From NCBI GenBank assembly GCA_027371535.1, contig DAHXMV010000001.1, positions 253,259 through 317,258 on the forward strand: 64,000 nucleotides of DNA, in the 5' to 3' direction. The stretch is from Candidatus Amesbacteria bacterium (GTDB lineage Bacteria > Patescibacteriota > Microgenomatia > CAZETR01 > Amesbacteraceae). Each line of letters starts with the position of its first letter. Position 1 is the stretch's first letter. Made by a program: the position numbers and the translations under genes. This document shows, piece by piece, positions 23,043 to 60,706 of the stretch. The notes under the pieces were generated by a model. That model saw only the letters and a list, made by a program, of their open reading frames with translations. It did not search any database and was not told where the DNA came from.

Positions 23043-23073
23043 AATAAGTTCTAACAGCGTCCCAAACACGCAG
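23043..23073. repeat. 31-bp direct repeat, copy 1 (aataagttctaacagcgtcccaaacacgcag)
   Basis: Exact 31/31 identity with 23647..23677. It begins 2 nt after the stop codon of the upstream gene. Confidence 0.85.
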
Positions 23074-23081
23074 CACGATTT

Positions 23082-23651
23082 TTGTTCTATAATCAATTTA
23101 TGAATTTACCCATAAATACAATTAAAGTTGATAATGATTTATATCTTAAAATCTGGGATATCAATTACTCTTCCGAGCTATTTAAATTAACAGACCAAAA
23201 CCGAAAATACTTACAGCCTTGGTTGCCATGGGTACCGAGTGTTAAGTACGAAAATGATTCAATTAAATTTATAACCCGCGTTATCAAAGAGATGAAAAAT
23301 GGCGAAGGTTTGGAATTGGGAATCTGGTATCAAAATAAACTTGTCGGATGTATCGGTTTGCACGGGTTAAGTAAATCAAACCGCAGGGCAAGTATAGGTT
23401 ATTGGCTTAGCAAAGAATATCAAAAAATGGGAATAATTACTCGTTCTGTAAAAGCATTGGTAGATTATTCTTTTAACATTTTAAATCTTAATCGTATTGC
23501 GATAGAGGCTAGTACTGAGAATCTTTCAAGTTGTGCAGTTGCGGAGAGACTAGGTTTTGTTAAAGAAGGTATCGTTCGACAATTTGAATATGTTGATGGA
23601 AAATTTTTGGACTATCAGGTTTATAGTGTACTTAAATTTGATTGGAAATAA
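23082..23651 (+). CDS. GNAT N-acetyltransferase, RimL/RimJ-like
   Basis: GNAT motif A region (IGYWLSKEYQKMGIITRSVKALVDY) with RimL-like N-terminal extension. AT-rich. Flanked by the 31-bp repeat. Confidence 0.7.
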   Translation: MFYNQFMNLPINTIKVDNDLYLKIWDINYSSELFKLTDQNRKYLQPWLPWVPSVKYENDSIKFITRVIKEMKNGEGLELGIWYQNKLVGCIGLHGLSKSNRRASIGYWLSKEYQKMGIITRSVKALVDYSFNILNLNRIAIEASTENLSSCAVAERLGFVKEGIVRQFEYVDGKFLDYQVYSVLKFDWK

Positions 23652-43000: not shown

Positions 43001-46000
43001 GTGGAGGTGGTGACGGTGGCCCCTGATGAAAATGAAGTCCCGAATACTGCCGTCACCATCCAGTTTTTCAAAAGAACATGGAATACCGTCCGGCAACTGG
43101 ATCCCGAATCGGGGCAATTTACCTATGTCAGCCAGCCGCACGACACCCAGGTAGCCAATGCCAATATCATCACCGACAACTTCGGCCATGCAACCACCTC
43201 TTTTACCCCGGGTGAGGGCGGCACATACCGGGTGCTGGCCAGTGTAACGGATGCCCTGGGGAACACGACAAAAACCAGCAGTTATGTCTGGGTGTCGGGC
43301 AGCGGATACATGACCCAGAGGGAGAATAACGACCGGATTCTGGTAGTACCGGATAAACGGGAATATTTTGTCGGGGATAATGCCTCCGTATTTGTGGATA
43401 CACCGTTTGCCACCGGTTCCGCCAAGACCCTCTTAACAGTCGAAAGATCCAAGGTGATCAGTTATAAAATCGTTGACACCAGCGATGTTTCCAATAATTT
43501 TCAAATGCCGATAAACCCCAACTACTCGCCCAATATCTATATCGGGGCGGTACTGGTCAAGGGCGGCAACCTGGTAAGCGCACCGCCGGAAATGAAAGTC
43601 GGATATGCCGAAGTAAAAGTGACAGACAAAAAACAGCAGCTGACGGTGGATATCCAGACTGATAAACCAAAATATAAGCCGGGGGAGACGATGCATGCTG
43701 TCATCACTGCCAAAGATTTGCTGGGGCATCCGGTAAATGCGGAATTGGCTGTCGGCCTGGTAGATAAATCGGTCTGGGACCTGTCGGAAATCCAGCTGCC
43801 GGATATTTATCAGTACTTTTATGTACCCAGGAATCTGGAAGTGGATACATCGCATTTGTTATCCATTTCCATGGACAGGATCAATACCAACACCAACCTG
43901 GGGGCCAAAGGCGGCAGCGGCGGATGTTTTACCGCGGAAACTCCGATTCTCTTGCCCGGCGGATTAACCAAACCCATCGGGGAGATCAAACCCGGAGACC
44001 GGGTGTTAACCAAAAGCAGCCCCGAATCGGCTGATCTGATCCCCGGAAAAGTGACGGCCGTATTAAAGCACAGTGTGGACAGATACCTGATCATAAACGG
44101 CAGTATTCATGTCACACCAGTACATTTATTATTTGTTAACGGGAATTGGAAAGCGGCTGGGGAAATTCAGACGGGTGACTGGCTGTTAAATACCAAAAAC
44201 GAACCGGTCAGAGTAAATTCTGTAGAGCAAGTATTCGGAAAAGACTTGATAGTTTATAACCTGGAAGTTGATCAGTACCACACTTTTTTTGCAGACGGGA
44301 TTTTTGTGCACAACCAGAAAGGCGGCGGTACGGATACCGCCCGGAATAATTTTCCCGAAACCGCTTATTGGAATCCGTCGATATTGACCGGCGATGACGG
44401 AAAAGCAGATATCACTGTCAAGCTGCCCGACAATCTGACCACGTGGAGATTGTCGGCGATTGCGGATTCCCGGGAGTCGGCATTCGGGTCGGCAACAGAT
44501 GAATTTGTAGTCAACCGAGAGGTGATGATCAGACCGGTGATACCCAGATTTTTGTTATACGGCGATCAGGCCAGTCTGGGAGCAATTATTGTAAATACCA
44601 GCGGTAAATCAGCCGTCTTCTCCACCACTCTGTCAGGCAAAGGTCTGACAGTAAATGCCAATTCCGTCCAGACGGCCACGATAGCCGACGGCGACCAGGC
44701 GAAATTTTTGTGGCCGACAACCACTGCCGGGAGCACCGATTCAGCCACCATTAATATCTCGGTAACGGACCAGAGCGGAACCCTGCATGACAGTTTAGTG
44801 CAAACCCTGCCGGTGAAAAGCTTTTCGACCGGAGAAACCGTGGCCACAGCCGGACAGGCGGCGGACACGGCGGTAGAAAACGTCAAATTACCGTCCGTGG
44901 TGGAATCCCAAAACGGGCGGGTGGATATTACTTTGTCCCCTTCACTGGGGACGGGCAGTATAGAAGCCGCCAATTATATGTATGATTACTCCTATTTCTG
45001 TACCGAGCAGACAACCAGTAAATTACTTACGGCAGTCAGCGCCCTTAAGGTATTAAGACAGGCAAAAACGGAAACTCTGGGATCCGTATCCCAGATGGAA
45101 ATGAACTGGATGGCAAATGATGCCATCCAAAGGCTGAATAATACCCAGCGGCCCGACGGCGGATGGGGCTGGTGGACGGAAGAAAGCTCCAGTGATCCGA
45201 TGATGTCTGCATATGCTTATTTAGGTCTTTGGGAAGCCAAAAACGCAGGCTTCACAGTCGCGGATAAAACCCTGAATCCGGCCAGACAATTTCTGCTGAC
45301 CAGTCTTTCGGGAAATTATCCGACCATAGGCCTGGACGGGAAAACTTTCCTGTTATATGCCTTAAAAGACAGCGGAGCTAATCTGTCGGCGTATGCGACA
45401 AATCTGTATGACCGGAGATTTGAAATGGGGGTAGCTTCGAGAGCATATCTGGCCATGGTCCTGAGGGCCAGTAAATTATCCGACGCAGCCAACAAGCAAT
45501 ATCAGGAGGTGCTGAGCCTGGCGAAAAAAACTTCTACCACCAGCCACTGGGAAGAATCCGGCAGAAATTATTATTACTGGTATTACGGAGCTAATCCGAC
45601 CACGGCAGCAGTCCTGGAGATGATGACGGATTTTGCCCCGAATAATCCCATGACCGGTGAAGCGGTGAGATATCTGATGGCCAACAGGGGGGATTATAAC
45701 TGGGGTTCCACCCAACAGACAGCCCTGATTATGAGAGCCATTACGAAGCAGATGCTGGCCGGCCAGAATGCCAACCTGAAAGAAAATTACAAACTGGAAA
45801 TCAACAACCGGGAGGTGCTTTCCGGACAATTAACCGCCGCTGATTTGCTTAGACTGGTGAAATTCAGCGTGCCGATTTCCAGCCTGGCTATCGGGCAGAA
45901 TAACACATTTAAAATTTCCAAAAGCGGCAGCGGAAATCTTTATTACAACTTTAACATGCATTACTTCCTGCCGTTTTCACAAATCGCGGCGCTTGATCAG

Positions 46001-46444
46001 GGATTGGTCATCATCCGGGAATTCACCGATGACCAGGGTAACAGCCTGCCCTTGGAAACCATCAGGGAAGGAACGCAAGCCTCGGTGAAGCTGACTGTCG
46101 TCGCTCCGGCAACCAGACAATTTGTCATCATCGAGGATATGCTCCCGGCCGGGCTGGAGGCGGTCAATGAAAGCCTGAAAAATGTGGTCAACCTGAATAA
46201 ATCAAATCCCATTTTAGACGAACCGGACAATTGGTGGTATTTTTACCACAGAGAATACCGGGACGACCGGACGACGATGTTTGCCAGATACCTGCCGGCC
46301 GGAATTTACACAGTCACCTACCAGGTGCGGGCGACCACTCCCGGCAAGTACCATTACCCGCCGGCCCAGGCTCATGAGATGTACTTTCCCGATGTGTCAG
46401 GACATTCCGACGGCGGATGGCTGACCGTGATTCCCAACAAGTAA
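40085..46444 (+). CDS. Alpha-2-macroglobulin family protein (2119 aa), N-terminally membrane-anchored, with an inserted Hint domain
   Basis: N-terminal TM/signal anchor (IPVMVAIIVGVVILIGPYF). Repeated MG-like beta domains. A post-bait motif RNNFPETAYWNP...TTWRLSAIA matches the FPETW(L)W...TTWEI region that follows the bait in A2M/C3 proteins. Thioester motif FCTEQT. Located directly downstream of pbpC. Confidence 0.8.
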   Translation: MISRCGHMFLDKLKGLAIKGVGKIISWGWGFVHLPLKEKWARIKIPVMVAIIVGVVILIGPYFAQPKISVSFPGNNSRENPLDSDVEIIFDRGMNKASVEKSFSITPKVDGALTWESNRKLVFTPKIPLQRGVNYKVKFNGLAVSSFLSPMPGGVSVTFTTVGNPIVSVFSPQSEAVEDLAPVMVIFDRPMIPLTTATNSAEKKSPFEISPPLTGTGKWLGTTAYQFTPLKPFKKATTYTVSVVPNLKSADGGIISQSFSWQFSSLRPHVLSVVPREGEFYASPTASVSAVFNQNIDGASAATHFKLVDTNGNQIPGRVTVNGKRLGFYPAAALVREKIYKAVIMAGLAGKEGPNGTESDYAWSFTMAAKPAVLRSAPADGDKNVENQGISVFFKTPMDEDSFKDNISINPVPENKPNFNFSDWNSQNELNIYSYLFRSTKYTVTIGPKVTDQYGVPLGSAYTFSFTTADYKPSVSFVPFGTYFASFNQQIVPRIVAQVNNAGEVNYNLYKLDRNSFLDLYKRYYTDFCSWNNEGCRNWQNYDVSKLEKVRSWKETIDINPSVPVNVVTKVTAADGTNLLSGFYFLTANVNTGQHDNMVMIVSDATMAVKKSSQQIFTWTVDQTSNEVIGGMNMELTDAYGNKLASGQTNGDGVWQQDVNIGNTYNLLIFGQKDSDVVVASSNWGSGINRYDFGLPSYYSYNASEDNQNSNNRYKLFLTTDRPIYRPGQKIYFKGLIRKDNDAAYANIPPGTPVSVNIADGRGRSIYSKSLPTNSSGTFADTCDISADGELGYYDLTATYGDNSVSQQVQVEEFRRPDMLLTIIPDKGYYLAGQTPGATINTAYYFGAPMANAQVNWSLNTQDYFFNWSRDWRFEFGDVEDIWYRWWGYHSSSGAQVTSGTGVTDDQGNLNLKIPFNMGKYTTSQQLELVAQVTDKSNQAVGSSQTFVVHQGGIYAGLHPESYGSSAGSETKVEVVTVAPDENEVPNTAVTIQFFKRTWNTVRQLDPESGQFTYVSQPHDTQVANANIITDNFGHATTSFTPGEGGTYRVLASVTDALGNTTKTSSYVWVSGSGYMTQRENNDRILVVPDKREYFVGDNASVFVDTPFATGSAKTLLTVERSKVISYKIVDTSDVSNNFQMPINPNYSPNIYIGAVLVKGGNLVSAPPEMKVGYAEVKVTDKKQQLTVDIQTDKPKYKPGETMHAVITAKDLLGHPVNAELAVGLVDKSVWDLSEIQLPDIYQYFYVPRNLEVDTSHLLSISMDRINTNTNLGAKGGSGGCFTAETPILLPGGLTKPIGEIKPGDRVLTKSSPESADLIPGKVTAVLKHSVDRYLIINGSIHVTPVHLLFVNGNWKAAGEIQTGDWLLNTKNEPVRVNSVEQVFGKDLIVYNLEVDQYHTFFADGIFVHNQKGGGTDTARNNFPETAYWNPSILTGDDGKADITVKLPDNLTTWRLSAIADSRESAFGSATDEFVVNREVMIRPVIPRFLLYGDQASLGAIIVNTSGKSAVFSTTLSGKGLTVNANSVQTATIADGDQAKFLWPTTTAGSTDSATINISVTDQSGTLHDSLVQTLPVKSFSTGETVATAGQAADTAVENVKLPSVVESQNGRVDITLSPSLGTGSIEAANYMYDYSYFCTEQTTSKLLTAVSALKVLRQAKTETLGSVSQMEMNWMANDAIQRLNNTQRPDGGWGWWTEESSSDPMMSAYAYLGLWEAKNAGFTVADKTLNPARQFLLTSLSGNYPTIGLDGKTFLLYALKDSGANLSAYATNLYDRRFEMGVASRAYLAMVLRASKLSDAANKQYQEVLSLAKKTSTTSHWEESGRNYYYWYYGANPTTAAVLEMMTDFAPNNPMTGEAVRYLMANRGDYNWGSTQQTALIMRAITKQMLAGQNANLKENYKLEINNREVLSGQLTAADLLRLVKFSVPISSLAIGQNNTFKISKSGSGNLYYNFNMHYFLPFSQIAALDQGLVIIREFTDDQGNSLPLETIREGTQASVKLTVVAPATRQFVIIEDMLPAGLEAVNESLKNVVNLNKSNPILDEPDNWWYFYHREYRDDRTTMFARYLPAGIYTVTYQVRATTPGKYHYPPAQAHEMYFPDVSGHSDGGWLTVIPNK
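43925..44314 (+). other. Hint / mini-intein-like (bacterial intein-like) domain of 130 aa embedded in the A2M ORF (residues 1281-1410)
   Basis: Block A CFTAETPILLPGG (Cys1), block B IHVTPVH (TxxH), block F/G VYNLEVDQYHTFFADGIFVHN ending in His-Asn. Too short to contain a homing-endonuclease domain. The +1 residue is Gln (not Cys/Ser/Thr). It is flanked by Gly-rich GGSGG and QKGGG. Confidence 0.7.
44999..45010 (+). other. Putative thioester motif CTEQ of the A2M protein
   Basis: CxEQ in the context YSYFCTEQTT (codon 1639). The canonical A2M thioester motif is CGEQ/CLEQ. Confidence 0.55.
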
Positions 46445-49852: not shown

Positions 49853-50095
49853 ATGCCGGAAACTCTGTTACATACAGACCTCTTGGAAAAACAATTCGGA
49901 CCGACCCATATTTTAGTAAATTGTCATGACAACCGGCACCGGATAGTGGACATCGTTAACAGTGAAGGGGTTTGCCTGACACATGCTGTCACCTGGCTTA
50001 CCCCAATTGATTACCGATCCGGGTCCAAGTTCAGCCGGGCTGCATTGGAAATCCGGGCCGGCGGTTCGTTGGGTAAGACTTTCAGAAATCATTGA
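49853..50095 (+). CDS. Hypothetical small protein (80 aa)
   Basis: ORF with plausible composition and no domain. First of two tandem small plus-strand ORFs in a 600-bp gap that has no minus-strand ORF. Confidence 0.2.
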   Translation: MPETLLHTDLLEKQFGPTHILVNCHDNRHRIVDIVNSEGVCLTHAVTWLTPIDYRSGSKFSRAALEIRAGGSLGKTFRNH

Positions 50096-50149
50096 TTTAC
50101 AATCAAAAAAGAGGGAATCGCCCGGGGTGAAGTTGTTATCCCTCCCTGG

Positions 50150-50380
50150 TTGAGAAAATTATTCAGAGTTGAAGAAGACAAGTCGCGTTATCGAATTTAT
50201 AAATTCATCGCCGTGGATTTTGATCACCATCCTTACCCGTACGGTGTTGTTTGCGAAATTGACACTCCCCTGTTTGATTCCAAAGAAGAACCCCAAAAAA
50301 GTACAGATACTAATTTATCCAAGCAGTATCGTAAATTAATGATGGAATATTTAAGCGTTGGAGAAATTAATAACAGTTAA
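50150..50380 (+). CDS. Hypothetical small protein (76 aa)
   Basis: ORF only. No domain recognised. Confidence 0.2.
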   Translation: MRKLFRVEEDKSRYRIYKFIAVDFDHHPYPYGVVCEIDTPLFDSKEEPQKSTDTNLSKQYRKLMMEYLSVGEINNS

Positions 50381-50384
50381 CTGG

Positions 50385-51518
50385 TTAGGATTGGAAACAA
50401 AATTTATATTGAGTATATTTATTTATTCTTTTATTATCCAGATTGTATCCTAATCCTGGTTTGTCAGGTACTTTTATAAAACCTTCCTGGTCAACCTCAT
50501 ATGACGGCTCTATTAAATCTTCTTTGTAAAAGATCGAGTATGGAGACATATCCGCTGGATATACAAATCCGGGTAACGAGGCCAGGGCAATATTGAACGC
50601 TCTCCCTATACCGCTCTCCAGTAGTCCTCCACACCACACACCTACATTATTTTGTTTACAGTAGTCATGTATCTTCTTTCCTTCAGTAATTCCTCCAACC
50701 CGTCCGGTTTTTATATTAATAATTTTGCATGCTCCATTTTCTACTGCCCTTCTGGCATCCTCTGCTGATAGAATGCTTTCATCGAGACAAATCGGGGTTT
50801 TGATTTGCTTCTGTAATGTTGCGTGGTCAATTAAATCCGTGTCGCCCAGAGGTTGCTCGATCATCAACAGGTGAAATTTGTCTAATATTTTTAATACCTC
50901 CAGATCCCTAAGGGTATAAGACGAATTTCCATCGACTATCAATTTTATATTTCCAAATTTATTTCGGATAAACTCTATTAATTTTATATCCCATCCGGGT
51001 TTTATTTTTATTTTAATTCGCTGATAACCCTGTTCTAATCTTAAGTTAATCTCATTAGCTGTTTCTTCGAACGATTTCTTTATACCTACGCTTTCACCAA
51101 TACCAACCTTCTCCCAGACACCTCCGAGGCTTCTGCTTATAGACGTTTGATTTATAGTCGAAAACATCATCCAGAATGCACAATCTACAGCAGCTTTGGC
51201 AAAATTAAATCCCTTGATACAGGAAAGTGTATTGTAAACCTCCTCAGGATTCATAAAACTCTTATTTAAAAGTAAAGGCAAGATATATTCTTTTAATCCT
51301 AATAAAGTAGTCTGCGTTGTTTCAGGAGAATAGTTTGGAAAAGGCAACGCTGCACCTTCCCCCCATCCGCATACTCCATTACCACCAACCAACTTCAAAA
51401 GAATAGTCTCTTTATAACTAATGGACCCGAAACCCGTCGTAAATGTTGAAATGAGAGGCAATCGTAAGAGTCTAATTTCAGAACTTTTAATATTCAGACT
51501 TTTACTAGAGAGTGACAT
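50385..51518 (-). CDS. Enolase-superfamily enzyme (MR/MLE subgroup: dipeptide epimerase / o-succinylbenzoate synthase / N-acyl-amino-acid racemase-like)
   Basis: KIKI, a KxK-like catalytic dyad region (IKIKIKPGWD), metal-ligand Asp/Glu pattern (LIVDGNSSY, MIEQP, LDES) and barrel Lys/Asp positions. Confidence 0.65.
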   Translation of the reverse strand: MSLSSKSLNIKSSEIRLLRLPLISTFTTGFGSISYKETILLKLVGGNGVCGWGEGAALPFPNYSPETTQTTLLGLKEYILPLLLNKSFMNPEEVYNTLSCIKGFNFAKAAVDCAFWMMFSTINQTSISRSLGGVWEKVGIGESVGIKKSFEETANEINLRLEQGYQRIKIKIKPGWDIKLIEFIRNKFGNIKLIVDGNSSYTLRDLEVLKILDKFHLLMIEQPLGDTDLIDHATLQKQIKTPICLDESILSAEDARRAVENGACKIINIKTGRVGGITEGKKIHDYCKQNNVGVWCGGLLESGIGRAFNIALASLPGFVYPADMSPYSIFYKEDLIEPSYEVDQEGFIKVPDKPGLGYNLDNKRINKYTQYKFCFQS

Positions 51519-52959
51519 TCCTAGATTTTACAATATCTTGGATGGATAAACCCTTTTCAATATAGTCATATAAAGCTCTGTCAGCACCGTTTTGTTCCGT
51601 CCGTAATACATGTTCCGGATAAACCAACATCCGGCCATCTTCATTAGACAAACCCCTCGAAGCTATGTTAAGTATGTTTTTGGCAAAATCATAAACACTT
51701 ACCCCGCAAGCTTCACCCTGTAGACCACTTTTTATTGCTGCCATGCGTAACAAGCCCAAATGCTGCCATTTAAATGAACCGATGTAGGCGGATGATTCAT
51801 CAAGATTGTGAAGCAACCCGGCTTGTAATGCACTAGGACCCATTACGGTAGACCAGGAGAGATCGTTCCCCAGAGATTTAAGATATGTATCGGGAAAGTT
51901 TGCACCCGGATCCCTGCCTTCAATATAAACATTACTTACTGCACCGTTTCTAAACAATTCTTCAAGAGAATCTTGCTTGAGAGCATCTAAAAAACCTTCT
52001 TTATCAATATTATCATGATTGAAGGTCCATCTTATTCTTGCGCTGGTGAATTGGGCAAATTGGAGAGCCTCCAGATGCCTGAGATGGGGTTTGACTAAAA
52101 CATTATCACCGCTGTTTAAAAGATTCCCGTTAGCACTATCTAAAGCCAGGTATTCTAAGACAGATGGATTATTTTCAATCAGAATTGCCCCGTCACCGAA
52201 TGTTTTATAGTTGCTTCCGGAGGCCATAACAAAATGAATATTAGTTCCATAACCGAACATCCATGTAAAGTAATCTCTTAGAGAATTAAAAGGTTTTTCC
52301 GGAAAATTTGCTGTTACCCGGTCTCCTTGTGAAATAGAATCTTTCATGAACCTTTCCCACATGGTTAACCTAGTTTCTTTAAACTCGCTTAATTTACCTT
52401 CTGCAAAAGGACTATTTGCGAAAATACCTATAAAAGCTGCAGAGGCTCCGATAATGGTAGAAACGGATTTAGCGGCATTTTCAGGTTCTATTCCTGTACA
52501 TGGGCTATTTTGGGCTTTAGCATCAATCCCCGCTGCATGATCCCAACCTCTTAGAGCTATATACTTGTAAACACCTTTGGGAGCTACAAATAACCTGTGT
52601 GTCTGTCTGTCCGTTTTACCCATGGGGTGTATGGACATATTTATAACAGTTGCTCCCTCTCGGGCCAGGACCTCCTGAATTGTAGCTAAATCAATTTTTA
52701 TTAAATCTTCCAGCTCGCCTAAACTCTGAGTTACACGGGTAGAAGTTTCCTGGAGGTTAAAACCATTATCTAAACCAATATGTCCCATCTCCGGAGTACT
52801 AATACCAATGATAGTATCGGGTCTGGTGTCGCTGTAATCAATATTAACTTTACTGTATTTCTCTGCTAATCCGTTAAAAGACTTCTGGGAAAGGCCTTTT
52901 GGATTTCCGGTTGCAATATCTGAGATTGGTTTTTCTATTTCTGCCCCGAATGTAGTCAT
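51505..52959 (-). CDS. Putative carboxylate-amine ligase, GCS2 (glutamate-cysteine ligase family 2)-like
   Basis: N-terminal FGAEIEKP fits the GCS2 G-x-E-x-E signature. The 484-aa size fits GshA/GCS2-like ligases. The assignment is tentative. Confidence 0.4.
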   Translation of the reverse strand: MTTFGAEIEKPISDIATGNPKGLSQKSFNGLAEKYSKVNIDYSDTRPDTIIGISTPEMGHIGLDNGFNLQETSTRVTQSLGELEDLIKIDLATIQEVLAREGATVINMSIHPMGKTDRQTHRLFVAPKGVYKYIALRGWDHAAGIDAKAQNSPCTGIEPENAAKSVSTIIGASAAFIGIFANSPFAEGKLSEFKETRLTMWERFMKDSISQGDRVTANFPEKPFNSLRDYFTWMFGYGTNIHFVMASGSNYKTFGDGAILIENNPSVLEYLALDSANGNLLNSGDNVLVKPHLRHLEALQFAQFTSARIRWTFNHDNIDKEGFLDALKQDSLEELFRNGAVSNVYIEGRDPGANFPDTYLKSLGNDLSWSTVMGPSALQAGLLHNLDESSAYIGSFKWQHLGLLRMAAIKSGLQGEACGVSVYDFAKNILNIASRGLSNEDGRMLVYPEHVLRTEQNGADRALYDYIEKGLSIQDIVKSRNVTL

Positions 52960-53032
52960 ATTTTATTATCCTGTAGTTTACGGCTGAATCAGGCCTTTGT
53001 CAAATATTAATCCCTAATTTATGGGCAAATAC

Positions 53033-53061
53033 TTGACAAGCTTGTATTTATAGGGTACTAT
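53033..53061 (+). promoter_or_regulatory. Sigma70-like promoter (TTGACA, 17-nt spacer, TACTAT)
   Basis: Exact -35 hexamer at 53033-53038, a 17-nt spacer, and a -10 TACTAT (4 of 6 matches to consensus) at 53056-53061. Lies in the divergent intergenic region. Confidence 0.4.
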
Positions 53062-53085
53062 CCATGCTTAACCGGAAGGGTTATT

Positions 53086-53139
53086 ATGATAAAAATTTCG
53101 ACTCTCTTTATACGTGTATCTTTATTCAGGCGCCTTTAG
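53086..53139 (+). CDS. Candidate 17-codon leader peptide (MIKISTLFIRVSLFRRL)
   Basis: Good Shine-Dalgarno GGAAGGG 5 nt upstream of the ATG. The stop codon TAG lies inside the downstream terminator hairpin. Confidence 0.3.
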   Translation: MIKISTLFIRVSLFRRL

Positions 53140-53152
53140 GCGCTTTTTTTTT
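53128..53152 (+). terminator. Intrinsic terminator-like hairpin in the 5' leader of the decarboxylase gene
   Basis: GC stem GCGCC/GGCGC (53130-53134 pairing with 53139-53143), loop TTTA, then nine consecutive T (53144-53152). Confidence 0.5.
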
Positions 53153-53161
53153 ACACAAAAC

Positions 53162-54658
53162 ATGCAGATAGAAACAAAAGATCACACTTATAATAGAAAA
53201 CAATTAGCCTTGCAGTTGGCTACAAGGGAAGGCTCTCACGACCCGCGGCTTGTGGATAAGGTACTTTCAATGTACCCCGATCCGGATAATCCCCGTATGT
53301 CCCTTAATGGGTTTATCTCAAATCTGGAACAAATAGCCATTGATGGCAGAAATACGGATAAAAACGATCGGACATTATTGGCCGGATTAAACTCTGTTCT
53401 GAAAGATATCGATTCTGCCCGTTTGTTCAATGAAACATATATAGGTCACATGCTGACCGAAGCCTCAATTCCTGGATTATTGGGTTATATTATGGGTCTA
53501 AAAACCGGGTCAAATACCGTTGCCAGGGAGGTATCACTGGCCGAATCAAAATTGGAGCCGGAAGCCATCAGGGGTCTAGCGAAGATCATAGGCTATGATC
53601 CAGAAAAAGCCGACGGCACTTTTACTTCAGGAGGAAGCATGGCAATGCAAACCGCACTTATGGCGGCCAGGAGAAAAGCAATGTCCGAAGGTAAACATCC
53701 TACTCCCGATCACCCCCTGGTTGTTTTTGGCAACTGTTACTCCCATTACTCAGTATCTAAAATGTGTGACATAATAGGTGGCCCCACCGAACTGGTGGTA
53801 AAAAGAGATATCAAAGTAAAAAACTTTAAAACCGATTTAAATGACTTGGAGTATAAGTTGGAAGAGGCAAAAAGCAATAATGACCCTGTGATGGCAGTAA
53901 TATCTATCGTTGCTGAAACAGAAACTGGGAAAGTTGATAATAGCAAAAATATCGTTTCTATTGCTGGTAAATACGGTGTTCCTGTCATTGTTGATGGGGC
54001 TTTCGGTGCTCCAATGCGCTTATCCCGGAATGGTCACCTTATGGCTGGCATGGAATCATCGTATGCTATTACTGTCGATGGCCATAAATCCTTGGGAACA
54101 CCATACAGTAATGGTGCCGTAATATTCAAAACCGGTACTGATAAATATTTAGGTTACGGTGACAGAGTTGAATATTTGGGTGATAAAGCTAACCTTGGAC
54201 AAAAAAGGATAGAGGGTTCAATGGGGGCCGGTCCGATTTTGTCTACGGTTGCGGTCTTGAGGACACTGGGTCTGGATGGATTGGCTACTCTTTACAACCT
54301 TAATTTAGACCGCGTGGAATATTTGTGGAAAGTTGTCGAAAAATCACCTGTTTTATTAAATCTGTTTTATCCTGAAATGAATCTTTTATGTTTCGGGATT
54401 AAAACAGAAATTATTTCCAAACTGGGGATTAATTCAGTTAAAGGAGTAAAAGAATTTATAGACACAACCAGAGAAGAACTAGATAATGGTGTCCAGAGGT
54501 ATGGCGGTCACTTTTTTTCAGCAACTGAATTGCCGCTGGAAGATGGCACGAAGGCACCCGTTTACCGGGCCTGTATTATGCACCCCCGCACCACCAACGA
54601 AACCATAGACAATGCTATTACCGGTTTGGAGCGTGTAATTTATTCTCATCTTAAATAG
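53162..54658 (+). CDS. Group II PLP-dependent amino-acid decarboxylase
   Basis: TSGGSMAMQTALMAARRKA and the PLP-Lys region ITVDGHKSLGTPYSNG. The ORF track starts at an alternative GTG at 53114 that would read through the terminator hairpin, so ATG at 53162 (MQIETKD...) is the more likely start. Confidence 0.75.
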   Translation: MQIETKDHTYNRKQLALQLATREGSHDPRLVDKVLSMYPDPDNPRMSLNGFISNLEQIAIDGRNTDKNDRTLLAGLNSVLKDIDSARLFNETYIGHMLTEASIPGLLGYIMGLKTGSNTVAREVSLAESKLEPEAIRGLAKIIGYDPEKADGTFTSGGSMAMQTALMAARRKAMSEGKHPTPDHPLVVFGNCYSHYSVSKMCDIIGGPTELVVKRDIKVKNFKTDLNDLEYKLEEAKSNNDPVMAVISIVAETETGKVDNSKNIVSIAGKYGVPVIVDGAFGAPMRLSRNGHLMAGMESSYAITVDGHKSLGTPYSNGAVIFKTGTDKYLGYGDRVEYLGDKANLGQKRIEGSMGAGPILSTVAVLRTLGLDGLATLYNLNLDRVEYLWKVVEKSPVLLNLFYPEMNLLCFGIKTEIISKLGINSVKGVKEFIDTTREELDNGVQRYGGHFFSATELPLEDGTKAPVYRACIMHPRTTNETIDNAITGLERVIYSHLK

Positions 54659-54659
54659 T

Positions 54660-55835
54660 ATGTCAGAAAAACTCGCACAATATAATATTATCTATAAATT
54701 TAAACGGGCAGATGATTATGCGTCGGATAAAAAGGTGCAGCCTGACGAAAGCCTTAGAAATATTGACTGTGGTTTAGGTTCTTCACCATTCGGTTACCCA
54801 CCGGAGGTTGATACTGCTCTCCAAAATATCACCCCGAGCCTTTTGAACGAATATCCGAATGATCCTTATTCTGAAAGCCTGTCCCATCTGGTAAAAGATA
54901 GATTTCATCTTAAAAAATCTACCTCGGTTTTTTTTGGCGGAGCCGGCAGTTATGGTTTACTAGCTTCATTATTAAGCGACATGGTTAAAGTGGGGGCAAT
55001 AGTAAATGGTATAGAAGTTGTGGGTGCGGGTCCTCAATTTACGAATATAAAAATACTTTCGCAAAGAGCACAGATTCCATATCACCCCTTGACACCCGAT
55101 ATAGGCCTACCTTACGAAGAAAAAATTGATATGTTAATAAAAAATCGGGAAAGAGCCTACAACCCTGCAATAGTTTATATCGATAATCCCAATAATCCCA
55201 CTGGGGCGACTGTATGTTTTAATACCCTGTGTGAATTATCTGAAGCCACTGCTAAAAAGGATTTATTGATTATTGATGAAGCTTACGGAGATGCTGTTCC
55301 CGATGAAAGTTCAGCATTTCGCCTGGCTGATATCTATCCCCATGTCGTCGCTCTTCGTTCCATTTCTAAAACGGTAGGTCTGGCTTCTCCCCGGCTCGGT
55401 TACATGGCCATGTCGGGTTACACTGCCAAGGCATATGAAAATTTACAACTGGTATTTTCACTTGATTCTCTGACCCAATTAATTGGTCATGCAGTTTTAC
55501 AACCTGAAGTGTTGGCCAGTTTTTTACCCAAAGTCAGAGAAATGACAACTCAGGCCAAGTGTAGTTTTACACAAATGCTTAACACTCATGGGGTGGAAAC
55601 GTTTAGTACTCAGCCGTCGGTCAGTATTTTGTTGGCTAGGGCCAACCAAAACTTTTTTGAAAATTTAAAACAGATTAATATATGTACTGAAAGTGGCGCC
55701 ACTTTTAAGCCCACTCATCCAGCAATGGATTGTAGTTATGTTCGTTTTCGGATTCCCGCTGATCAAAAAGATATAACTGAAATCGGAGACAGACTGGAAA
55801 TGATTAGCCAACATAACTCCGTTAATAATGGTTAG
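54660..55835 (+). CDS. Class I/II PLP-dependent aminotransferase (HisC/CobD-like)
   Basis: NPNNPTGA, DEAYGD, and the PLP-Lys in SISKTVGLASPRLGY. Confidence 0.75.
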   Translation: MSEKLAQYNIIYKFKRADDYASDKKVQPDESLRNIDCGLGSSPFGYPPEVDTALQNITPSLLNEYPNDPYSESLSHLVKDRFHLKKSTSVFFGGAGSYGLLASLLSDMVKVGAIVNGIEVVGAGPQFTNIKILSQRAQIPYHPLTPDIGLPYEEKIDMLIKNRERAYNPAIVYIDNPNNPTGATVCFNTLCELSEATAKKDLLIIDEAYGDAVPDESSAFRLADIYPHVVALRSISKTVGLASPRLGYMAMSGYTAKAYENLQLVFSLDSLTQLIGHAVLQPEVLASFLPKVREMTTQAKCSFTQMLNTHGVETFSTQPSVSILLARANQNFFENLKQINICTESGATFKPTHPAMDCSYVRFRIPADQKDITEIGDRLEMISQHNSVNNG

Positions 55836-56919
55836 AGAGAAATTTATCGACCAGCTTGGAAAATTAGTTGAAATTTCCACCATCTCTTCGGACTCCGCTG
55901 CCAATTCCATGGCCCTGGATATAGTAGAAAGTTGGGTAAACGACAAATCTCATAAACTCCGTGTAAAAAACGGTAATGCTGAGATTTTATTATTGGGAAG
56001 CGGTGATCTAATAAACCCAAAAGTGGGTTACCTGGTACACATGGATGTGGTTGAAGGCCAGCCCAGTCAATTTAGACTGACCCATTCCGGTAATAAACTC
56101 TTAGGCCGGGGGGTCAGTGATATGAAATTTTCCATCCCGATTGGGGTGGAACTACTCAATCAGACCATTACCGGTAAATCAGATAATGACTTCACCCTGG
56201 CAATTACTACGGATGAAGAAGTTGGCGGCGGTGAAGGCGGTAAACACTTGGCTGATGTTTTGCAATTCCGGCCTGGAGTATTAGTTGTCCCTGATGGCGG
56301 TGATGGATTCGTCTTAGTCAATAAATCCAAGGGTGTAGCCCATGTTTGGGTGGAATCCACAGGAAAACCTGCCCATGCTTCCACTCCCTGGTTGGGGAAA
56401 AATGCCCTAACCCCGTTATGCCGCCTTGCAGCTAATTTATTAAATAAATATGATCAAAACTCCAGACAGGAGAATTGGGAAACCACTATGAATATCGGTT
56501 CCTTTTCGGGAGGAAAATCGGTCAACCAAGTTTGCCCTGAAGCAGTCTTAAGGTTGGATTTCCGCTTTCCAGAAACCCGGACTGTAGATGAAATTTTAGC
56601 CGAAATCAAACAGTTAGCAGCAGGCGTAGATCCGACATTGAAAGCTAAAATAACTGCTTCCGGAGATCCTACCTTTACAGATGTTAAATCCGAACCTGTC
56701 CGCAAATTACAACAAGCTTCCCAGGAAATTCTGGGTCATGCCATTGCTGTAATTGGTGAATGTGGTGCTTCCGATGCCAGATATTGGGCCAGATATCATA
56801 CCCCTATAATTATGACCAAACCTGAAGGTGGAGGGATACACAGTGATGACGAATGGATAAATTCTGACTCATGTCTGACTTTTTACTCTTTAATTTCAAG
56901 ATATCTTGCAATATTATAA
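55828..56919 (+). CDS. M20-family metallo-deacylase (ArgE/DapE-like)
   Basis: Metal ligands GYLVHMDVV (HxD) and GRGVSDMKFS (D), plus a dimerisation-domain pattern. Confidence 0.75.
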   Translation: MVREKFIDQLGKLVEISTISSDSAANSMALDIVESWVNDKSHKLRVKNGNAEILLLGSGDLINPKVGYLVHMDVVEGQPSQFRLTHSGNKLLGRGVSDMKFSIPIGVELLNQTITGKSDNDFTLAITTDEEVGGGEGGKHLADVLQFRPGVLVVPDGGDGFVLVNKSKGVAHVWVESTGKPAHASTPWLGKNALTPLCRLAANLLNKYDQNSRQENWETTMNIGSFSGGKSVNQVCPEAVLRLDFRFPETRTVDEILAEIKQLAAGVDPTLKAKITASGDPTFTDVKSEPVRKLQQASQEILGHAIAVIGECGASDARYWARYHTPIIMTKPEGGGIHSDDEWINSDSCLTFYSLISRYLAIL

Positions 56920-57035
56920 AAGAATGCTATAATAATCTTTGTATGAAATTGGCAGTTAGCTTCTTTAGCTTTTTCTTTACTCTCTCAAAGGGGAGGGTCT
57001 AAGGCTGTAAACAATAAAGAAAAAGCCTAGAGACA

Positions 57036-57059
57036 CTCCCCGAAAGGGGAGTTTTTTTT
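57036..57059 (+). terminator. Intrinsic terminator (CTCCCC-GAAA-GGGGAG followed by T8)
   Basis: Perfect 6-bp GC-rich stem, GNRA-like loop and eight T. Ends the decarboxylase/aminotransferase/M20 unit. Confidence 0.6.
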
Positions 57060-57221
57060 ATGAAAAAAGAAATCCAAATACCAAAAGAATTACCACCTAA
57101 ACCTCAACCGCCAGCCGAAGAAGCCCCGCGCTGGTTGATATATAAAATGGAGTTGGAGAAAATAGGCATTATTCTTGAACCCATAGACCCCAAAAATACA
57201 GCTGAAAATCAAGTGATTTAA
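57060..57221 (+). CDS. Hypothetical small protein (53 aa, Pro/Lys-rich N-terminus)
   Basis: ATG lies 8 nt after GGGGAG, which is also the 3' arm of the terminator. Translation: MKKEIQIPKELPPKPQPPAEEAPRWLIYKMELEKIGIILEPIDPKNTAENQVI. Below the ORF-track size cutoff. Confidence 0.25.
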   Translation: MKKEIQIPKELPPKPQPPAEEAPRWLIYKMELEKIGIILEPIDPKNTAENQVI

Positions 57222-59371: not shown

Positions 59372-59839
59372 TCATGATTTTTGCGGCTGATACCTTAAAA
59401 ACAGACGATCAACTCCGGGGCCGAAATAGTCCTTTTTGAAGTTATAAATCACAAAACCGTTGGTCAGATAGAGAATAATAATCGGGGAATTGGCCGGATA
59501 GCAGGTAGCGGAAATACTTTTGGCTCCGGGTTTTTTTAACAGGTCATCCAATCTGAGCTGGAACAGTTTCAAGCCGATCCCCCGACGGCGAAACCCGGGA
59601 TGGACGATCATGCCGCACATTTCGTATTCGCCTTTTTTTCTTAAACTGTAGCCGGCCCAGCCAACCAGAGTCTCCCCATCAAAAGCGCCATATGCCCGGC
59701 CGTCTTTATTTTTAAAAATATAACTATTCAGAGAATCCGGACTGTGACGGTAATAAACCGGCAGTCCGGGAGCATATTGAGATTCAAATTCCAGAATATC
59801 GGTTTTATGTTCCGGAGTCAGGATCTGATAGCAAATCAC
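59372..59839 (-). CDS. GNAT family N-acetyltransferase
   Basis: Motif A MIVHPGFRRRGIGLKLFQ. Confidence 0.7.
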   Translation of the reverse strand: MICYQILTPEHKTDILEFESQYAPGLPVYYRHSPDSLNSYIFKNKDGRAYGAFDGETLVGWAGYSLRKKGEYEMCGMIVHPGFRRRGIGLKLFQLRLDDLLKKPGAKSISATCYPANSPIIILYLTNGFVIYNFKKDYFGPGVDRLFLRYQPQKS

Positions 59840-60004: not shown

Positions 60005-60706
60005 ATGGCCAGGGAAAGAGAAATAAAAATCAGATTAAAAGACATCAGCCTGGATGAATTTGTAAACCGGGTGGAAAAATCAGGTTTTAAATTGGAAAGC
60101 ATAATTACCCAAACGGATATATATTTTGATAGAAGGGACTGGTACCTGTATGATAATTTGGCCGCACTGAGACTTCGAAAGGTTAATGATAAAGATGATT
60201 CAGTTTCTTTTAAGAAGTTGTTTTATTTACCAAATCGAACGGATAAACATTTTATTGAGGAAATAGAAACCAGGTTCCCGCCGGAGAAAGAAAAGATGGA
60301 TGAAATAATTCAGAGGTTACGATTAAAAGGCAAGGTTGATTTAAGAAACGGCGATACCATATCAGAATATTTCAGAATGAACGGTTATTTTGACGAACAA
60401 AAAATGAGTAAAATAAGAAAAGTATATATAAACGGATATGATGAAATAGTCATTGACGATGTGGACCGGGTCGGTTTGATTATAGAAATTGAATGCCGGG
60501 AGGGCGAACCGATTGATATTGCCAATAAATTATTGACAGACAGGGAATGGGTGCGGGATCTGGAAGGTACCAGCTATATCTGGCTAAGAAACGTCAAAGG
60601 ATTAAACAGGCATCTGAAACACCTGAAGTGTTTTGAAACAGATCCAACCTGGAATGTCTGGGATAATGAAAGGGATTTTTACCAAAGCATCCAATCATCA
60701 TCTTAA
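60005..60706 (+). CDS. CYTH-domain protein (class IV adenylate cyclase / triphosphatase fold)
   Basis: N-terminal REIKIRL (ExExK), LRLRK, and IIEIECRE motifs of the triphosphate tunnel. Confidence 0.6.
   Translation: MAREREIKIRLKDISLDEFVNRVEKSGFKLESIITQTDIYFDRRDWYLYDNLAALRLRKVNDKDDSVSFKKLFYLPNRTDKHFIEEIETRFPPEKEKMDEIIQRLRLKGKVDLRNGDTISEYFRMNGYFDEQKMSKIRKVYINGYDEIVIDDVDRVGLIIEIECREGEPIDIANKLLTDREWVRDLEGTSYIWLRNVKGLNRHLKHLKCFETDPTWNVWDNERDFYQSIQSSS

Follow-up and report, generated by a model that had tools for sequence, protein, structure and literature searches.

The five-gene cluster at positions 50385 to 56919 of the window, the 64,000-nucleotide stretch of Candidatus Amesbacteria DNA that we analyzed, probably encodes a route that N-acylates, racemizes, and deacylates an amino acid and thereby inverts its alpha-carbon, a reading to which we assign a probability of about 60%. 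We read this route as most likely an ATP-dependent, CoA-independent variant of a known pathway, with an added aminotransferase and decarboxylase. Where the known pathway uses a CoA-dependent enzyme, the variant in this cluster has an ATP-driven ligase.

Gene families and layout of the cluster

All five ORFs of the initial annotation were recovered at the same positions, forming two tightly packed, divergent units:

50385-51518, minus strand: predicted racemase of the N-succinylamino-acid racemase/o-succinylbenzoate synthase (NSAR/OSBS) subfamily, enolase superfamily (NSAR), 377 amino acids
51505-52959, minus strand: ATP-dependent carboxylate-amine ligase with a glutamate-cysteine-ligase fold (LIG), 484 amino acids
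53162-54658 (ORF from 53114), plus strand: PLP-dependent group II amino-acid decarboxylase (DEC), 498 amino acids
54660-55835, plus strand: HisC-like class I/II aminotransferase (AT12), 391 amino acids
55828-56919, plus strand: M20 metallo-amidohydrolase of the ArgE/DapE type (M20), 363 amino acids

The LIG stop and NSAR start overlap by 14 nt, the DEC and AT12 genes are separated by 1 nt, and the AT12 and M20 genes overlap by 8 nt. DEC almost certainly starts at ATG 53162 and not at GTG 53114, because the public gene call is 498 amino acids long and the GTG precedes a terminator hairpin. The region shared by the two units is therefore 202 bp with back-to-back promoter-like sites, not the 150-bp control region proposed previously. 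The low GC content that had been suspected was confirmed: third-position GC content (GC3) was 0.33 to 0.39 for the five cluster genes, whereas the remaining 54 ORFs averaged 0.489 (SD, 0.069), and no other 6.5-kb stretch of the window has a GC content as low. The cluster is also rearranged and mosaic and occupies a different site from the clusters of relatives. Together with the low GC content, these features make horizontal exchange among CPR bacteria plausible.

The five original family assignments all held in Pfam and NCBIfam profiles and among relatives of solved structure. The racemase scored 155 bits with Pfam MR_MLE_C, also matched MR_MLE_N, and reached 325.7 bits with NCBIfam TIGR01928 (o-succinylbenzoate synthase; cut-off, 200.65). 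Its closest solved relative was Listeria lin2664 (4e-98), and further relatives included the Deinococcus, Thermus, and Amycolatopsis N-acylamino acid racemases (1e-83 to 1e-86). At the aligned positions, K169/K171, D196, E221, D246, K270, and R273 are all present, so that the KxK motif, the D/E/D metal ligands, the second catalytic lysine, and the R266-equivalent arginine are intact (residue roles from PMC12006748). From these matches and residues, we assign the enzyme to the NSAR/OSBS subfamily, characterized NSARs of which prefer hydrophobic N-succinyl amino acids (PMC12006748). The N-acyl-amino-acid racemase half of the original description thus stands; the alternative of a dipeptide epimerase was rejected, with 92 bits against an AEE model cut-off of 500.

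The ligase matched the glutamate-cysteine-ligase fold and exceeded the gathering score of Pfam GCS2, but the GCL and EgtA equivalog models gave approximately 21 to 23 bits, far under their cut-offs of 371 to 463. Likewise, DEC matched Pfam Pyridoxal_deC (88 bits) and fell far under the NCBIfam equivalog cut-offs for PanP (116 versus 606), DABA decarboxylase (88 versus 900), and MfnA (79 versus 299); its closest solved relatives were 8zpi (3e-28), 4rit, and GAD65/67, with DABA decarboxylases also among the best. AT12 matched Pfam Aminotran_1_2 (74 bits), with a readable HisC/CobD-type SxSK..GLA..RxGY lysine motif, and was under the hisC (110.9 versus 276.6) and CobD (100 versus 290.6) cut-offs; histidinol-phosphate and phenylalanine aminotransferases were its closest solved relatives (1e-10 to 1e-12). 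M20 matched Peptidase_M20 and M20_dimer (72 bits each), remained under the TIGR01910 cut-off (112 versus 217.6), and was closest to 2rb7 (3e-24), with DapE, ArgE, and CPG2 at 1e-9 to 1e-12.

Ligase-racemase linkage in relatives and the proposed route

In 22 of 23 CPR ligase loci, the racemase gene lay no more than one gene downstream of the ligase gene, usually immediately and often overlapping, and 17 of those loci contained an M20 gene in the same fetched locus. In all, approximately 25 Patescibacteria loci have the racemase gene directly after the ligase gene, mostly with an M20 hydrolase gene close by. Approximately 60 proteobacterial ligase homologues (33 to 40% identical) stand alone. 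The cluster is a recurrent, though sporadic, module of Patescibacteria, and the view that it is unexpected in a minimal genome does not hold.

One relative, L087, has the gene order PBP1A< SerRS> LIG> NSAR> AT12> M20> DEC> HAD> IUNH> M20b> TyrRS>. Locus L093 carries the same string with a protein of approximately 300 amino acids in the LIG slot, as do L088/L169 and L170 in theirs. When a profile of this family was compared with the PDB, every match was a GNAT chain (best, 3e-7), and Pfam Acetyltransf_1 recognized 18 of the 40 members, which identifies the slot protein by sequence as a GNAT acyltransferase. A Bacillus pakistanensis homologue (L168) lies within an M20-GNAT-MR_MLE operon, the same arrangement as that published for the D-to-L pathway (bioRxiv 10.1101/2022.03.03.481873; PMC12006748). 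Ligase and GNAT therefore represent an in situ non-orthologous displacement among syntenic relatives, which, along with the ligase-racemase pairing in CPR loci, backs the logic of ligation or acylation, epimerization, and deacylation put forward in the initial annotation.

In the route that we propose, the ligase would use ATP to join a carboxylic acid, probably the glutamate gamma-carboxyl or a succinate-like acid, to the amino group of an amino acid. The translationally coupled NSAR-type racemase would then interconvert the N-acyl-D and N-acyl-L forms, its two lysines abstracting and returning the alpha-proton, and the M20 amidohydrolase would strip the acyl group from one stereoisomer, making the conversion irreversible. 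With a ligase in place of a succinyl-CoA-dependent GNAT, the route would need no acyl-CoA. We know of no characterized GCL-fold ligase that acylates a D-amino acid or uses succinate. AT12 and DEC are lineage-specific additions that would connect this amino acid with the corresponding keto acid and amine.

Phenylalanine leader peptides and the likely substrate

Predicted regulatory elements lie between the two units and from the end of M20 onward:

52975-53061, no strand assigned: divergent promoter-like region (consensus scan, 10/12 matches for each site)
53003-52975, minus strand: promoter-like site TTGACA-17-TAAACT, -35 box at 53003
53033-53061, plus strand: promoter-like site TTGACA-17-TACTAT, -35 box at 53033
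53086-53139 (element 53086-53154), plus strand: 17-codon leader ORF MIKISTLFIRVSLFRRL, directly 5' of the DEC start
56906-57059, plus strand: phenylalanine leader-peptide attenuator (promoter, Phe-rich leader ORF, and terminator)
56906-56933, plus strand: attenuator promoter TTGCAA-16-(TG)TATAAT
56943-57002, plus strand: attenuator leader ORF MKLAVSFFSFFFTLSKGRV, 7 Phe in 19 residues
56990-56995, plus strand: attenuator region 2, GGGGAG
57035-57052, plus strand: attenuator terminator CTCCCC/GGGGAG, followed by T8
57060-57221, plus strand: 53-amino-acid ORF beginning right after the attenuator T-run

The attenuator matched Rfam RF01859 (Phe_leader) at 56942-57061 with 42 bits (gathering score, 55; E value, 4.8e-6) and folds with -40 kcal/mol (z score, -3.25). 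The strong terminator previously taken to close the cluster exists, but as part of this attenuator and not as a plain operon end. Counting the window, 11 loci have a classical Phe attenuator within or behind the cluster, and 10 of these 11 leaders contain a region 2 that could base-pair with the 5' terminator arm. Region 2 covaries with the terminator arms, as GGGAGG/CCTCCC in one group and GCGGGG/CCCCGC in the other. The attenuator precedes AT12-M20 in L007 and F9-M20 in L011, L012, and L014.

Six relatives (L005, L086, L087, L091, L093, and L094) have Phe-rich leader ORFs with terminators upstream of DEC. The plus-strand promoter of the window aligns with the conserved promoter 5' of DEC in relatives, and the DEC leader of the window, which runs into a terminator-like hairpin (53128-53145) followed by T9, matches their 17- to 18-codon leaders in position and length. 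This leader has lost most of its Phe codons, retaining only two, and has a 10-nt deletion. The intact attenuator of the window now precedes only the 53-amino-acid ORF, which is possibly the regulated gene. ORFs of 58 to 85 amino acids occupy the same slot in relatives, with marginal similarity to the window ORF and no matches in a Pfam search.

Both the recurrence of Phe leader-peptide attenuators in these clusters and the linkage to tyrosyl-tRNA synthetase suggest phenylalanine and/or tyrosine as the most likely substrate. The TyrRS gene lies less than 10 kb away in Saccharimonadales loci (L029 and L032) and Woesebacteria-type loci and is not present in the window. With an aromatic substrate, we infer a salvage and homeostasis module wired to Phe-sensing leader peptides, in which D-Phe and phenylpyruvate would be converted to L-Phe and excess to the amine. 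Against this reading, the decarboxylase fits a salvage route poorly, and its leader lacks an antiterminator, so that its regulation could have either sign. The loss of Phe codons from the DEC leader of the window and the placement of the intact attenuator before nothing but a small ORF also count against it.

Alternative readings and known systems

The alternative that survives best, which we regard as possible but doubtful, is biosynthetic: the ligase would attach a gamma-glutamyl (or another acyl) group to an L-amino acid and the racemase would convert the product to the D form, giving an N-acyl-D-amino acid, a free D-amino acid via a D-specific hydrolase, or a derived amine for use, for example, in the cell wall or as a small signaling or defense metabolite. 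The glutamate gamma-carboxyl is indeed the group activated by all characterized GCL/GS-fold ligases, and L085 and L023 have VanX-like M15 dipeptidases, either instead of M20 or alongside it, as well as a second racemase paralogue, which could indicate an L-to-D route or action on dipeptides. Class I glutamine-amidotransferase/Peptidase_C26-like genes within the cluster (L016 and L062), radical SAM genes (L014 and L030), and a class A penicillin-binding protein gene adjoining the cluster in Woesebacteria relatives point the same way. However, the ligase and the GNAT of the Firmicutes D-to-L pathway are interchangeable, and no conserved transporter, NRPS, or Mur-type ligase lies nearby to use such a product. 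Furthermore, attenuators before AT12-M20 or F9-M20 imply induction under Phe-tRNA shortage, which fits production of L-Phe and not of a D-amino acid. Compared with the noncanonical amine or peptide metabolite first envisaged, we consider it more probable that the cluster salvages or inverts an ordinary aromatic amino acid.

An N-protected pathway of the ArgE/DapE/LysW type seems unlikely. Here, the ligase would protect the alpha-amino group, the aminotransferase would act on a distal keto or aldehyde group, the racemase would set the D configuration, and M20 would deprotect, yielding a diamino acid (for example, meso-DAP, ornithine, or DABA) or its decarboxylated amine. The ArgE/DapE-like M20, the DABA decarboxylases related to DEC, and the adjoining penicillin-binding protein gene in relatives are consistent with this scheme, and the ArgD-like class III aminotransferases of L002, L007, and L008, which score best as acetylornithine, succinyl-DAP, and LysJ transaminases, fit it better than they fit the inversion route. 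These aminotransferases are nevertheless found in only 3 of approximately 30 loci and not in the window, every equivalog model is far under its cut-off, and the required kinase or reductase is not present. Phe-rich leaders and TyrRS linkage suggest aromatic and not basic amino acids, and group II decarboxylases, unlike LysA, act at L-centers.

Recycling of murein peptides or dipeptides, in which the enolase-superfamily enzyme would epimerize a dipeptide and M20 would serve as the dipeptidase, is more improbable still. YcjG and YkfB epimerize L-Ala-D/L-Glu, and an epimerase with an M20 dipeptidase such as PepD is a known E. coli recycling pair; L094, whose cluster is otherwise similar (AT12-M20-?-epimerase-DEC), encodes an epimerase that resembles AEE, scoring 139 bits with the Thermotoga L-Ala-D/L-Glu epimerase model. 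The window enzyme instead matches the NSAR/OSBS model and falls far short of the AEE model, and a catabolic route needs neither an ATP-dependent ligase nor an epimerase-coupled acyltransferase. Least credible is a chance neighborhood of MenC, a gamma-glutamylcysteine-making ligase, HisC, and DapE: although TIGR01928 and GCS2 score above threshold and public annotation names CPR homologues o-succinylbenzoate synthase, the MenC match is one of name only, CPR bacteria generally lack quinones, the EgtA, GCL, HisC, and DapE equivalog models are far under cut-offs, and the five genes stay linked in distantly related CPR lineages, with in situ ligase/GNAT displacement. In the seven loci whose gene calls carry family annotation, no men, gshB, his, or dap gene adjoins the cluster; in approximately 20 other CPR loci, screened with cluster-derived queries only, recurrent neighbor families were all cluster-related or unknown.

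Among known systems, lactic acid bacteria have tyrosine decarboxylase operons ordered tyrS-tdc-tyrP, which resemble the CPR clusters in linking a group II decarboxylase gene to a TyrRS gene and amino-acid-sensing leader regulation. They differ in having an antiporter gene, in that TyrRS is absent from the window, and in their decarboxylase, from which DEC is distant (68 to 79 bits versus an enterococcal model cut-off of 905). Like the proteobacterial pheA/pheST attenuators (RF01859), the window attenuator consists of a promoter, a short leader ORF containing a run of Phe codons, and an intrinsic terminator whose 3' arm is duplicated by region 2; in contrast, its Rfam score is under the gathering score, its host belongs to the Patescibacteria, and such elements precede a cluster hydrolase, an aminotransferase, or a small ORF instead of Phe biosynthesis or PheRS genes. 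The ligase is 14 to 19% identical to plant-type glutamate-cysteine ligases and YbdK carboxylate-amine ligases (Pfam GCS2), has no glutathione synthetase partner nearby, and in CPR bacteria is coupled to a racemase. As in murein-peptide recycling by E. coli YcjG, B. subtilis YkfB, and PepD, an MLE-subgroup epimerase that would act on an N-acylated C-terminal residue is paired with an M20 peptidase, but the window enzyme belongs by sequence to another subfamily and is accompanied by a predicted upstream acylating enzyme that would be superfluous for catabolism.

The closest counterpart is the D-to-L pathway of a GNAT succinyltransferase, an NSAR/OSBS racemase, and an M20 L-desuccinylase (bioRxiv 10.1101/2022.03.03.481873; PMC12006748). 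Like that pathway, the window combines in one cluster an NSAR/OSBS racemase whose catalytic residues are all present and an M20 amidohydrolase, and GNAT itself adjoins the racemase in CPR sister clusters and the Bacillus operon. In contrast to it, the CPR clusters also encode a HisC-like aminotransferase and a group II decarboxylase and contain Phe leader attenuators, and in the window and approximately 25 CPR loci the GCL-fold ATP-dependent ligase replaces GNAT, so that the acyl donor would be a free acid plus ATP instead of an acyl-CoA.

Gene order and composition of the cluster

All five ORFs of the initial annotation were found at their original coordinates and form two compact divergent units.

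Genes of the two units
50385-51518, minus strand: NSAR, enolase-superfamily racemase; unit 1, 14-nt overlap with LIG
51505-52959, minus strand: LIG, ATP-dependent ligase; unit 1, overlaps NSAR by 14 nt
53162 (ATG start), plus strand: DEC, group II decarboxylase; unit 2, 498 aa, 1-nt gap to AT12
54660-55835, plus strand: AT12, HisC-like aminotransferase; unit 2, 8-nt overlap with M20
55828-56919, plus strand: M20, amidohydrolase; unit 2, last gene

The DEC start should be placed at ATG 53162 in preference to GTG 53114 (the public gene call is 498 aa), and the intergenic region therefore measures 202 bp. The control region described as shared by both units is present and holds two back-to-back promoter-like sites, at this size instead of the 150 bp first given. 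The low GC content ascribed to the cluster was confirmed, as GC3 of the five genes was 0.33-0.39 versus 0.489 +/- 0.069 for the other 54 ORFs and the cluster was the lowest-GC 6.5-kb stretch of the window. Other low-GC3 genes (0.22-0.39) lie at 22435-23648, 19087-19923, and 60005-60703, the last being a CYTH-domain gene, so that the cluster is one of several patches of atypical composition in the genome.

Two short ORFs in different frames occupy the whole interval from RelA/SpoT to the racemase (window 49853-50380) and may represent a frameshifted or decayed gene bordering the low-GC block.

Short ORFs between the RelA/SpoT and racemase genes
49853-50095: short ORF, 80 aa
50150-50380: short ORF, 76 aa

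A 2119-aa alpha-2-macroglobulin-like ORF at 40085-46444 has PT-HINT, Vint, and Intein_splicing in its public Pfam listing, which suggests an intein or Hint insertion.

Enzyme families and genomic partners

The racemase contained an N-terminal capping domain and a C-terminal barrel (Pfam MR_MLE_N, 31.7 bits; MR_MLE_C, 155.2 bits) and, with 325.7 bits, exceeded the TIGR01928 cut-off of 200.65. Among solved structures, Listeria lin2664 (4e-98) was closest, followed by N-acylamino acid racemases of Deinococcus, Thermus, and Amycolatopsis. Alignment to the Deinococcus and Listeria structures identified residues K169/K171, D196, E221, D246, K270, and R273, and the protein carries the KxK motif, D/E/D metal ligands, a second catalytic lysine, and the equivalent of Arg R266 of the Amycolatopsis NSAR. 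In NSAR/OSBS enzymes, two lysines are catalytic and a second-shell arginine supports racemase activity alongside the metal ligands (PMC12006748). These findings show that the window protein is an NSAR/OSBS-subfamily member rather than a generic MR/MLE enzyme. The initial typing as MR/MLE-type and N-acyl-amino-acid-racemase-like was upheld by score and active-site residues, and its mention of a dipeptide epimerase was not, with both L-Ala-D/L-Glu epimerase (AEE) models below cut-off (92.3 versus 500 and 65.4 versus 343). No men-type family was found near the cluster in seven loci with family-annotated gene calls; in about 20 other loci from Patescibacteria (CPR), screened by cluster-derived queries and neighbour clustering only, each recurrent family of neighbours was cluster-related or uncharacterised.

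Profile searches bore out the remaining family memberships, with DEC, AT12, and M20 being genuine group II decarboxylase, HisC/CobD-like aminotransferase, and ArgE/DapE-like M20 members, the last with general M20 and dimerisation domains (Pfam). All three scored far below every curated equivalog cut-off, including AT12 on TIGR01141 (HisC; 110.9 versus 276.55) and M20 on TIGR01910 (112.3 versus 217.6) and on all DapE and ArgE equivalogs, and solved enzymes were only distantly related. The HisC family includes aromatic aminotransferases, among them the PDB match 4r2n of AT12, and no his genes were found near the window cluster. The broadly named TIGR01928 was the only equivalog test passed by cluster proteins, and no substrate is assignable to DEC, AT12, or M20 from sequence similarity alone. 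DEC is the least explained member. A methanofuran-like logic of MfnA decarboxylase, glutamyl ligase, and aminotransferase was rejected, since MfnB, MfnE, and MfnF were not found and the racemase and M20 would be without a role.

LIG has the carboxylate-amine ligase fold of the GCL/GS type in a fold search, and a PDB sequence search with LIG alone gave no match. Scores of 22.7 on the EgtA model (cut-off 370.8) and 20.9 on the plant-type GCL model (cut-off 463.15) place it below the functional-equivalog level for gamma-glutamylcysteine synthesis. The closest homologues of LIG and NSAR occurred in Patescibacteria (Woese-, Levy-, Gottesman-, Davies-, Pacei-, and Saccharibacteria). For 80 genomic loci carrying a ligase-family gene (numbered with the prefix L, as are other loci of relatives), we compared every ORF with the proteins of the window by score. 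A racemase gene followed the ligase gene in 22 of 23 CPR loci, immediately in 21 and with one gene between in L016; the two genes often overlapped, and an M20 gene lay within the fetched locus in 17 of these first 23. About 60 proteobacterial ligase homologues (33-40% identical) had neither a racemase nor an M20 partner and give no functional clue because they lack conserved neighbours. Several Woesebacteria-type relatives carried the full set as LIG-NSAR-AT12-M20-DEC on a single strand at a conserved site (PheST, PBP1A, SerRS, cluster, HAD, nucleoside hydrolase, second M20, TyrRS). Variable accessory genes in CPR loci encoded a HisC-like aminotransferase, an ArgD-like class III aminotransferase, a group II decarboxylase, a class I amidotransferase/C26-like protein, a radical SAM protein, a VanX-like M15 dipeptidase accompanied by a second paralogue of the racemase, and the Pfam-less families F3 and F9.

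Some of these variants deserve separate description. F3 (400-960 aa; no Pfam or NCBIfam match) occurred in L009, L012, L014-L016, L018, L057 (8298-9974), and L062, directly upstream of the ligase in most loci; in L062 it lay past M20 and on the other strand. Proteins of the F9 family (about 330 aa; likewise without Pfam or NCBIfam match) lay between racemase and M20 in L011-L014 (e.g., L011 12776-13714). In L085 (8833-13609) and L023 (3195-9180), the ligase-racemase pair was flanked by a VanX-like Peptidase_M15 and by a second paralogue of NSAR, a hint of D-specific hydrolysis in some lineages. At L094 1993-8874, the order AT12, M20, a 538-aa protein, an AEE-like dipeptide epimerase, a Phe-rich leader, and DEC follows the same logic with another epimerase subfamily and a different first enzyme. 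Several contigs with the CPR-type ligase-racemase cluster (L008, L009, L011-L013, L016-L018, L030) are registered as non-CPR organisms (Gammaproteobacteria, Weeksellaceae, Micrarchaeia, Oligoflexia) and are probably mis-binned or mislabelled genomes.

Using DEC as query brought in CPR clusters with NSAR, AT12, M20, and DEC that lacked the ligase and instead had a protein of about 300 aa, without Pfam match, directly upstream of NSAR. The loci L093 and L087 were syntenic gene for gene (PBP1A on the opposite strand, then SerRS, slot X, NSAR, AT12, M20, DEC, HAD, IUNH, M20b, and TyrRS), with slot X occupied by the 300-aa protein in L093 and by the ligase in L087. Homologues of the 300-aa protein were annotated as GNAT acetyltransferases, the PDB matches of a 40-sequence family profile were all GNAT chains (best 3e-7), and 18 of the 40 members matched Pfam Acetyltransf_1, so that by homology the protein in the ligase slot is a GNAT. 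Sister clusters with this GNAT were L088/L169, L093, and L170, and the homologue of Bacillus pakistanensis sits in an M20-GNAT-MR_MLE operon (L168). No pathway-type GNAT homologue was detected in the window by phmmer, and the GCL-fold ligase holds the slot. A 155-aa GNAT acetyltransferase gene at 59372-59839, 2.5 kb downstream of the cluster, had no phmmer match to the pathway-type GNAT and was not conserved beside related clusters. Because of the in-situ non-orthologous displacement between L093 and L087, which is the strongest available evidence, LIG would do the job of the GNAT by N-acylating an amino acid to make the racemase substrate.

The window cluster differs from its relatives in being divided between two divergent operons and in lying at another site, beside RelA and an A2M-like gene, with neither PheST nor TyrRS in the window. 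LIG and NSAR were 61-69% and 62-70% identical to LIG-type Woesebacteria-like relatives (L005, L085-L087, L091), and M20 was 51-60% identical to these and 62% to GNAT-type L093. DEC and AT12 were closest to GNAT-type L088 (51% and 48%), with 37% for DEC and 46% for AT12 to L170 and only 42-44% and 23-26%, respectively, to the L005 type. These identities indicate a mosaic cluster. That the copy is rearranged, displaced, mosaic, and low in GC3 supports the proposed horizontal acquisition, as exchange among CPR by recombination or transfer, over vertical inheritance as a housekeeping cluster; it does not prove that the acquisition was recent.

Phenylalanine leaders and the likely amino acid

The strong terminator noted after M20 exists; rather than ending the operon, it belongs to a canonical-looking Phe leader attenuator at 56906-57059.

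Elements of the attenuator unit after M20
56906-56933, plus strand: promoter, first element of the unit
56943-57002, plus strand: leader ORF, MKLAVSFFSFFFTLSKGRV; 19 codons, 7 Phe
56990-56995, plus strand: GGGGAG box (region 2), duplicating the 3' terminator arm and complementary to CTCCCC at 57036-57041
57035-57052, plus strand: terminator, followed by T8
57060-57221: ORF after the attenuator, 53 aa, no Pfam match

The unit has a Phe-codon run and an intrinsic terminator, and its regions can form the alternative pairings 2:3 and 3:4. It matched Rfam RF01859 (Phe_leader) with 42 bits (E 4.8e-6 in a 241-nt search), below the gathering score of 55, and an Rfam scan of the whole window at gathering thresholds gave no match. 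A blind scan for short Phe-rich ORFs revealed ten more units in or after related CPR clusters, making 11 with the window: after DEC in L005, L086, L087, L088, L091, and L093, before F9-M20 in L011, L012, and L014, and before AT12-M20 in L007. Of the 11 units, 10 had a region 2 able to pair with the 5' terminator arm, and its sequence differed in step with the arms between two groups of loci (GGGAGG/CCTCCC in one, GCGGGG/CCCCGC in the other). The minimum-free-energy fold of the window unit with a stalled ribosome kept the terminator, and ribosome-masked folding predicted terminator loss for neither leader class.

The second, simpler class of Phe-rich leader (FxFxFFF; 17-18 codons), whose stop codon directly adjoins a terminator and which shows no antiterminator, was always upstream of DEC, in six relatives (L005 14939, L086 14977, L087 14959, L091 7852, L093 7867, L094 7156). 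The window DEC leader (53086-53154) is a degenerate homologue in which a 10-nt deletion removed most of the Phe codons, and an Rfam E-value scan found no riboswitch in it. With ribosome masking, the DEC leader fold terminated with the ribosome stalled and had its terminator occluded with the ribosome at the stop codon; on this modelling, DEC would be expressed when Phe is plentiful. It appears that promoter, leader, and DEC were relocated together to a position ahead of AT12, which stranded the second attenuator after M20, where it now precedes only the 53-aa ORF. Small ORFs of 53-85 aa followed the attenuator in the window and six relatives (L086 16759-16947, L087 16758-16940, L005 16719, L091 9680, L093 9752, L088 6851), several ending in DPDKRNQI or ERNQI, with no Pfam match and marginal homology to the window ORF. 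A role as LysW- or Pup-like carrier of the ligase was rejected on the lack of Pfam match, the weak conservation, and their presence in GNAT-type clusters.

Both in Saccharimonadales and in Woesebacteria-type loci, TyrRS was less than 10 kb away from the cluster, and characterised NSARs favour hydrophobic side chains (PMC12006748). Three independent hints, the Phe attenuators, the simple DEC leaders, and the TyrRS linkage, point to phenylalanine or tyrosine as the probable amino acid. By analogy to classical attenuation, AT12, F9, and M20 would be switched on under scarcity of charged tRNA-Phe, which fits supply of L-Phe from D-Phe and phenylpyruvate.

Proposed route, alternatives, and known systems

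Families, motifs, and linkage are established by these results; we propose three steps, whose chemistry, substrates, and direction we infer. LIG would join a carboxylic acid and an amino acid at the expense of ATP to form an N-acyl amino acid, NSAR would bind this product through Mg and use two bases for a 1,1-proton transfer at its alpha-carbon, and stereoselective hydrolysis by M20 would pull the equilibrium. To our knowledge, every characterised enzyme of the LIG fold activates the gamma-carboxyl of glutamate, and this chemistry favours a gamma-glutamyl group; a succinate-like acid is favoured because the rest of the route is homologous to the succinyl pathway. We give a probability of about 0.35 to the full reading: a GCL-fold ligase was recruited in Patescibacteria for CoA-independent, ATP-driven N-acylation (possibly gamma-glutamylation) and supplies an NSAR-type racemase with its physiological substrate, the two enzymes form an undescribed stereoinversion route for aromatic amino acids in organisms where succinyl-CoA may be missing, and ribosome-sensed Phe leader peptides govern the whole module.

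An unlikely alternative, though the best placed, is a biosynthetic cluster whose product is an N-acyl-D-amino acid, a D-amino acid, or an amine, with which the M15 and C26-like cluster variants and the usual glutamate specificity of the LIG fold are consistent. We consider a protected-intermediate pathway of the ArgE/DapE/LysW kind improbable and murein-peptide recycling more so. The face-value housekeeping assignment (MenC, GCL, HisC, DapE) is scarcely credible, as partner genes were lacking in all loci with annotated gene calls, the HisC model was below cut-off, and every equivalog test except TIGR01928 failed. The idea that CPR lack racemases and rely on the module for the D-Ala or D-Glu of their wall is countered by the glutamate racemase of a Saccharimonas, whose experimental demonstration is cited in PMC11974145.

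Full-text literature searches found no description of the ligase-type cluster or of NSAR in CPR, nor of the ligase-for-GNAT substitution, the five-gene extended form, the restriction of the cluster to Patescibacteria, or its Phe attenuators; no report of ribosome-sensed Phe leader peptides in the candidate phyla radiation was found either. If true, the proposed route would give a first function to a GCS2-family ligase clade that public records label 'hypothetical' or 'glutamate-cysteine ligase family', and many CPR genes now annotated as 'o-succinylbenzoate synthase' would receive a corrected annotation; as far as we know, CPR organisms generally lack quinones. Amino-acid-auxotrophic ultra-small bacteria could then use environmental D-amino acids and keto acids without acyl-CoA chemistry. 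The Phe attenuators extend the known regulatory repertoire of Patescibacteria with ribosome-mediated attenuation. NSAR-acylase cascades are already in industrial use (PMC12149444), and an ATP-driven acylase/racemase/deacylase set might find use in enzymatic deracemisation.

Acylation, racemisation, and deacylation in sequence is an already known pathway, and GNAT versus ATP-dependent ligase in one chromosomal slot offers a clean natural case of non-orthologous displacement. As in the known D-to-L pathway, the window cluster encodes NSAR and an M20 deacylase together; in contrast to that pathway, it lacks the GNAT N-succinyltransferase next to NSAR.
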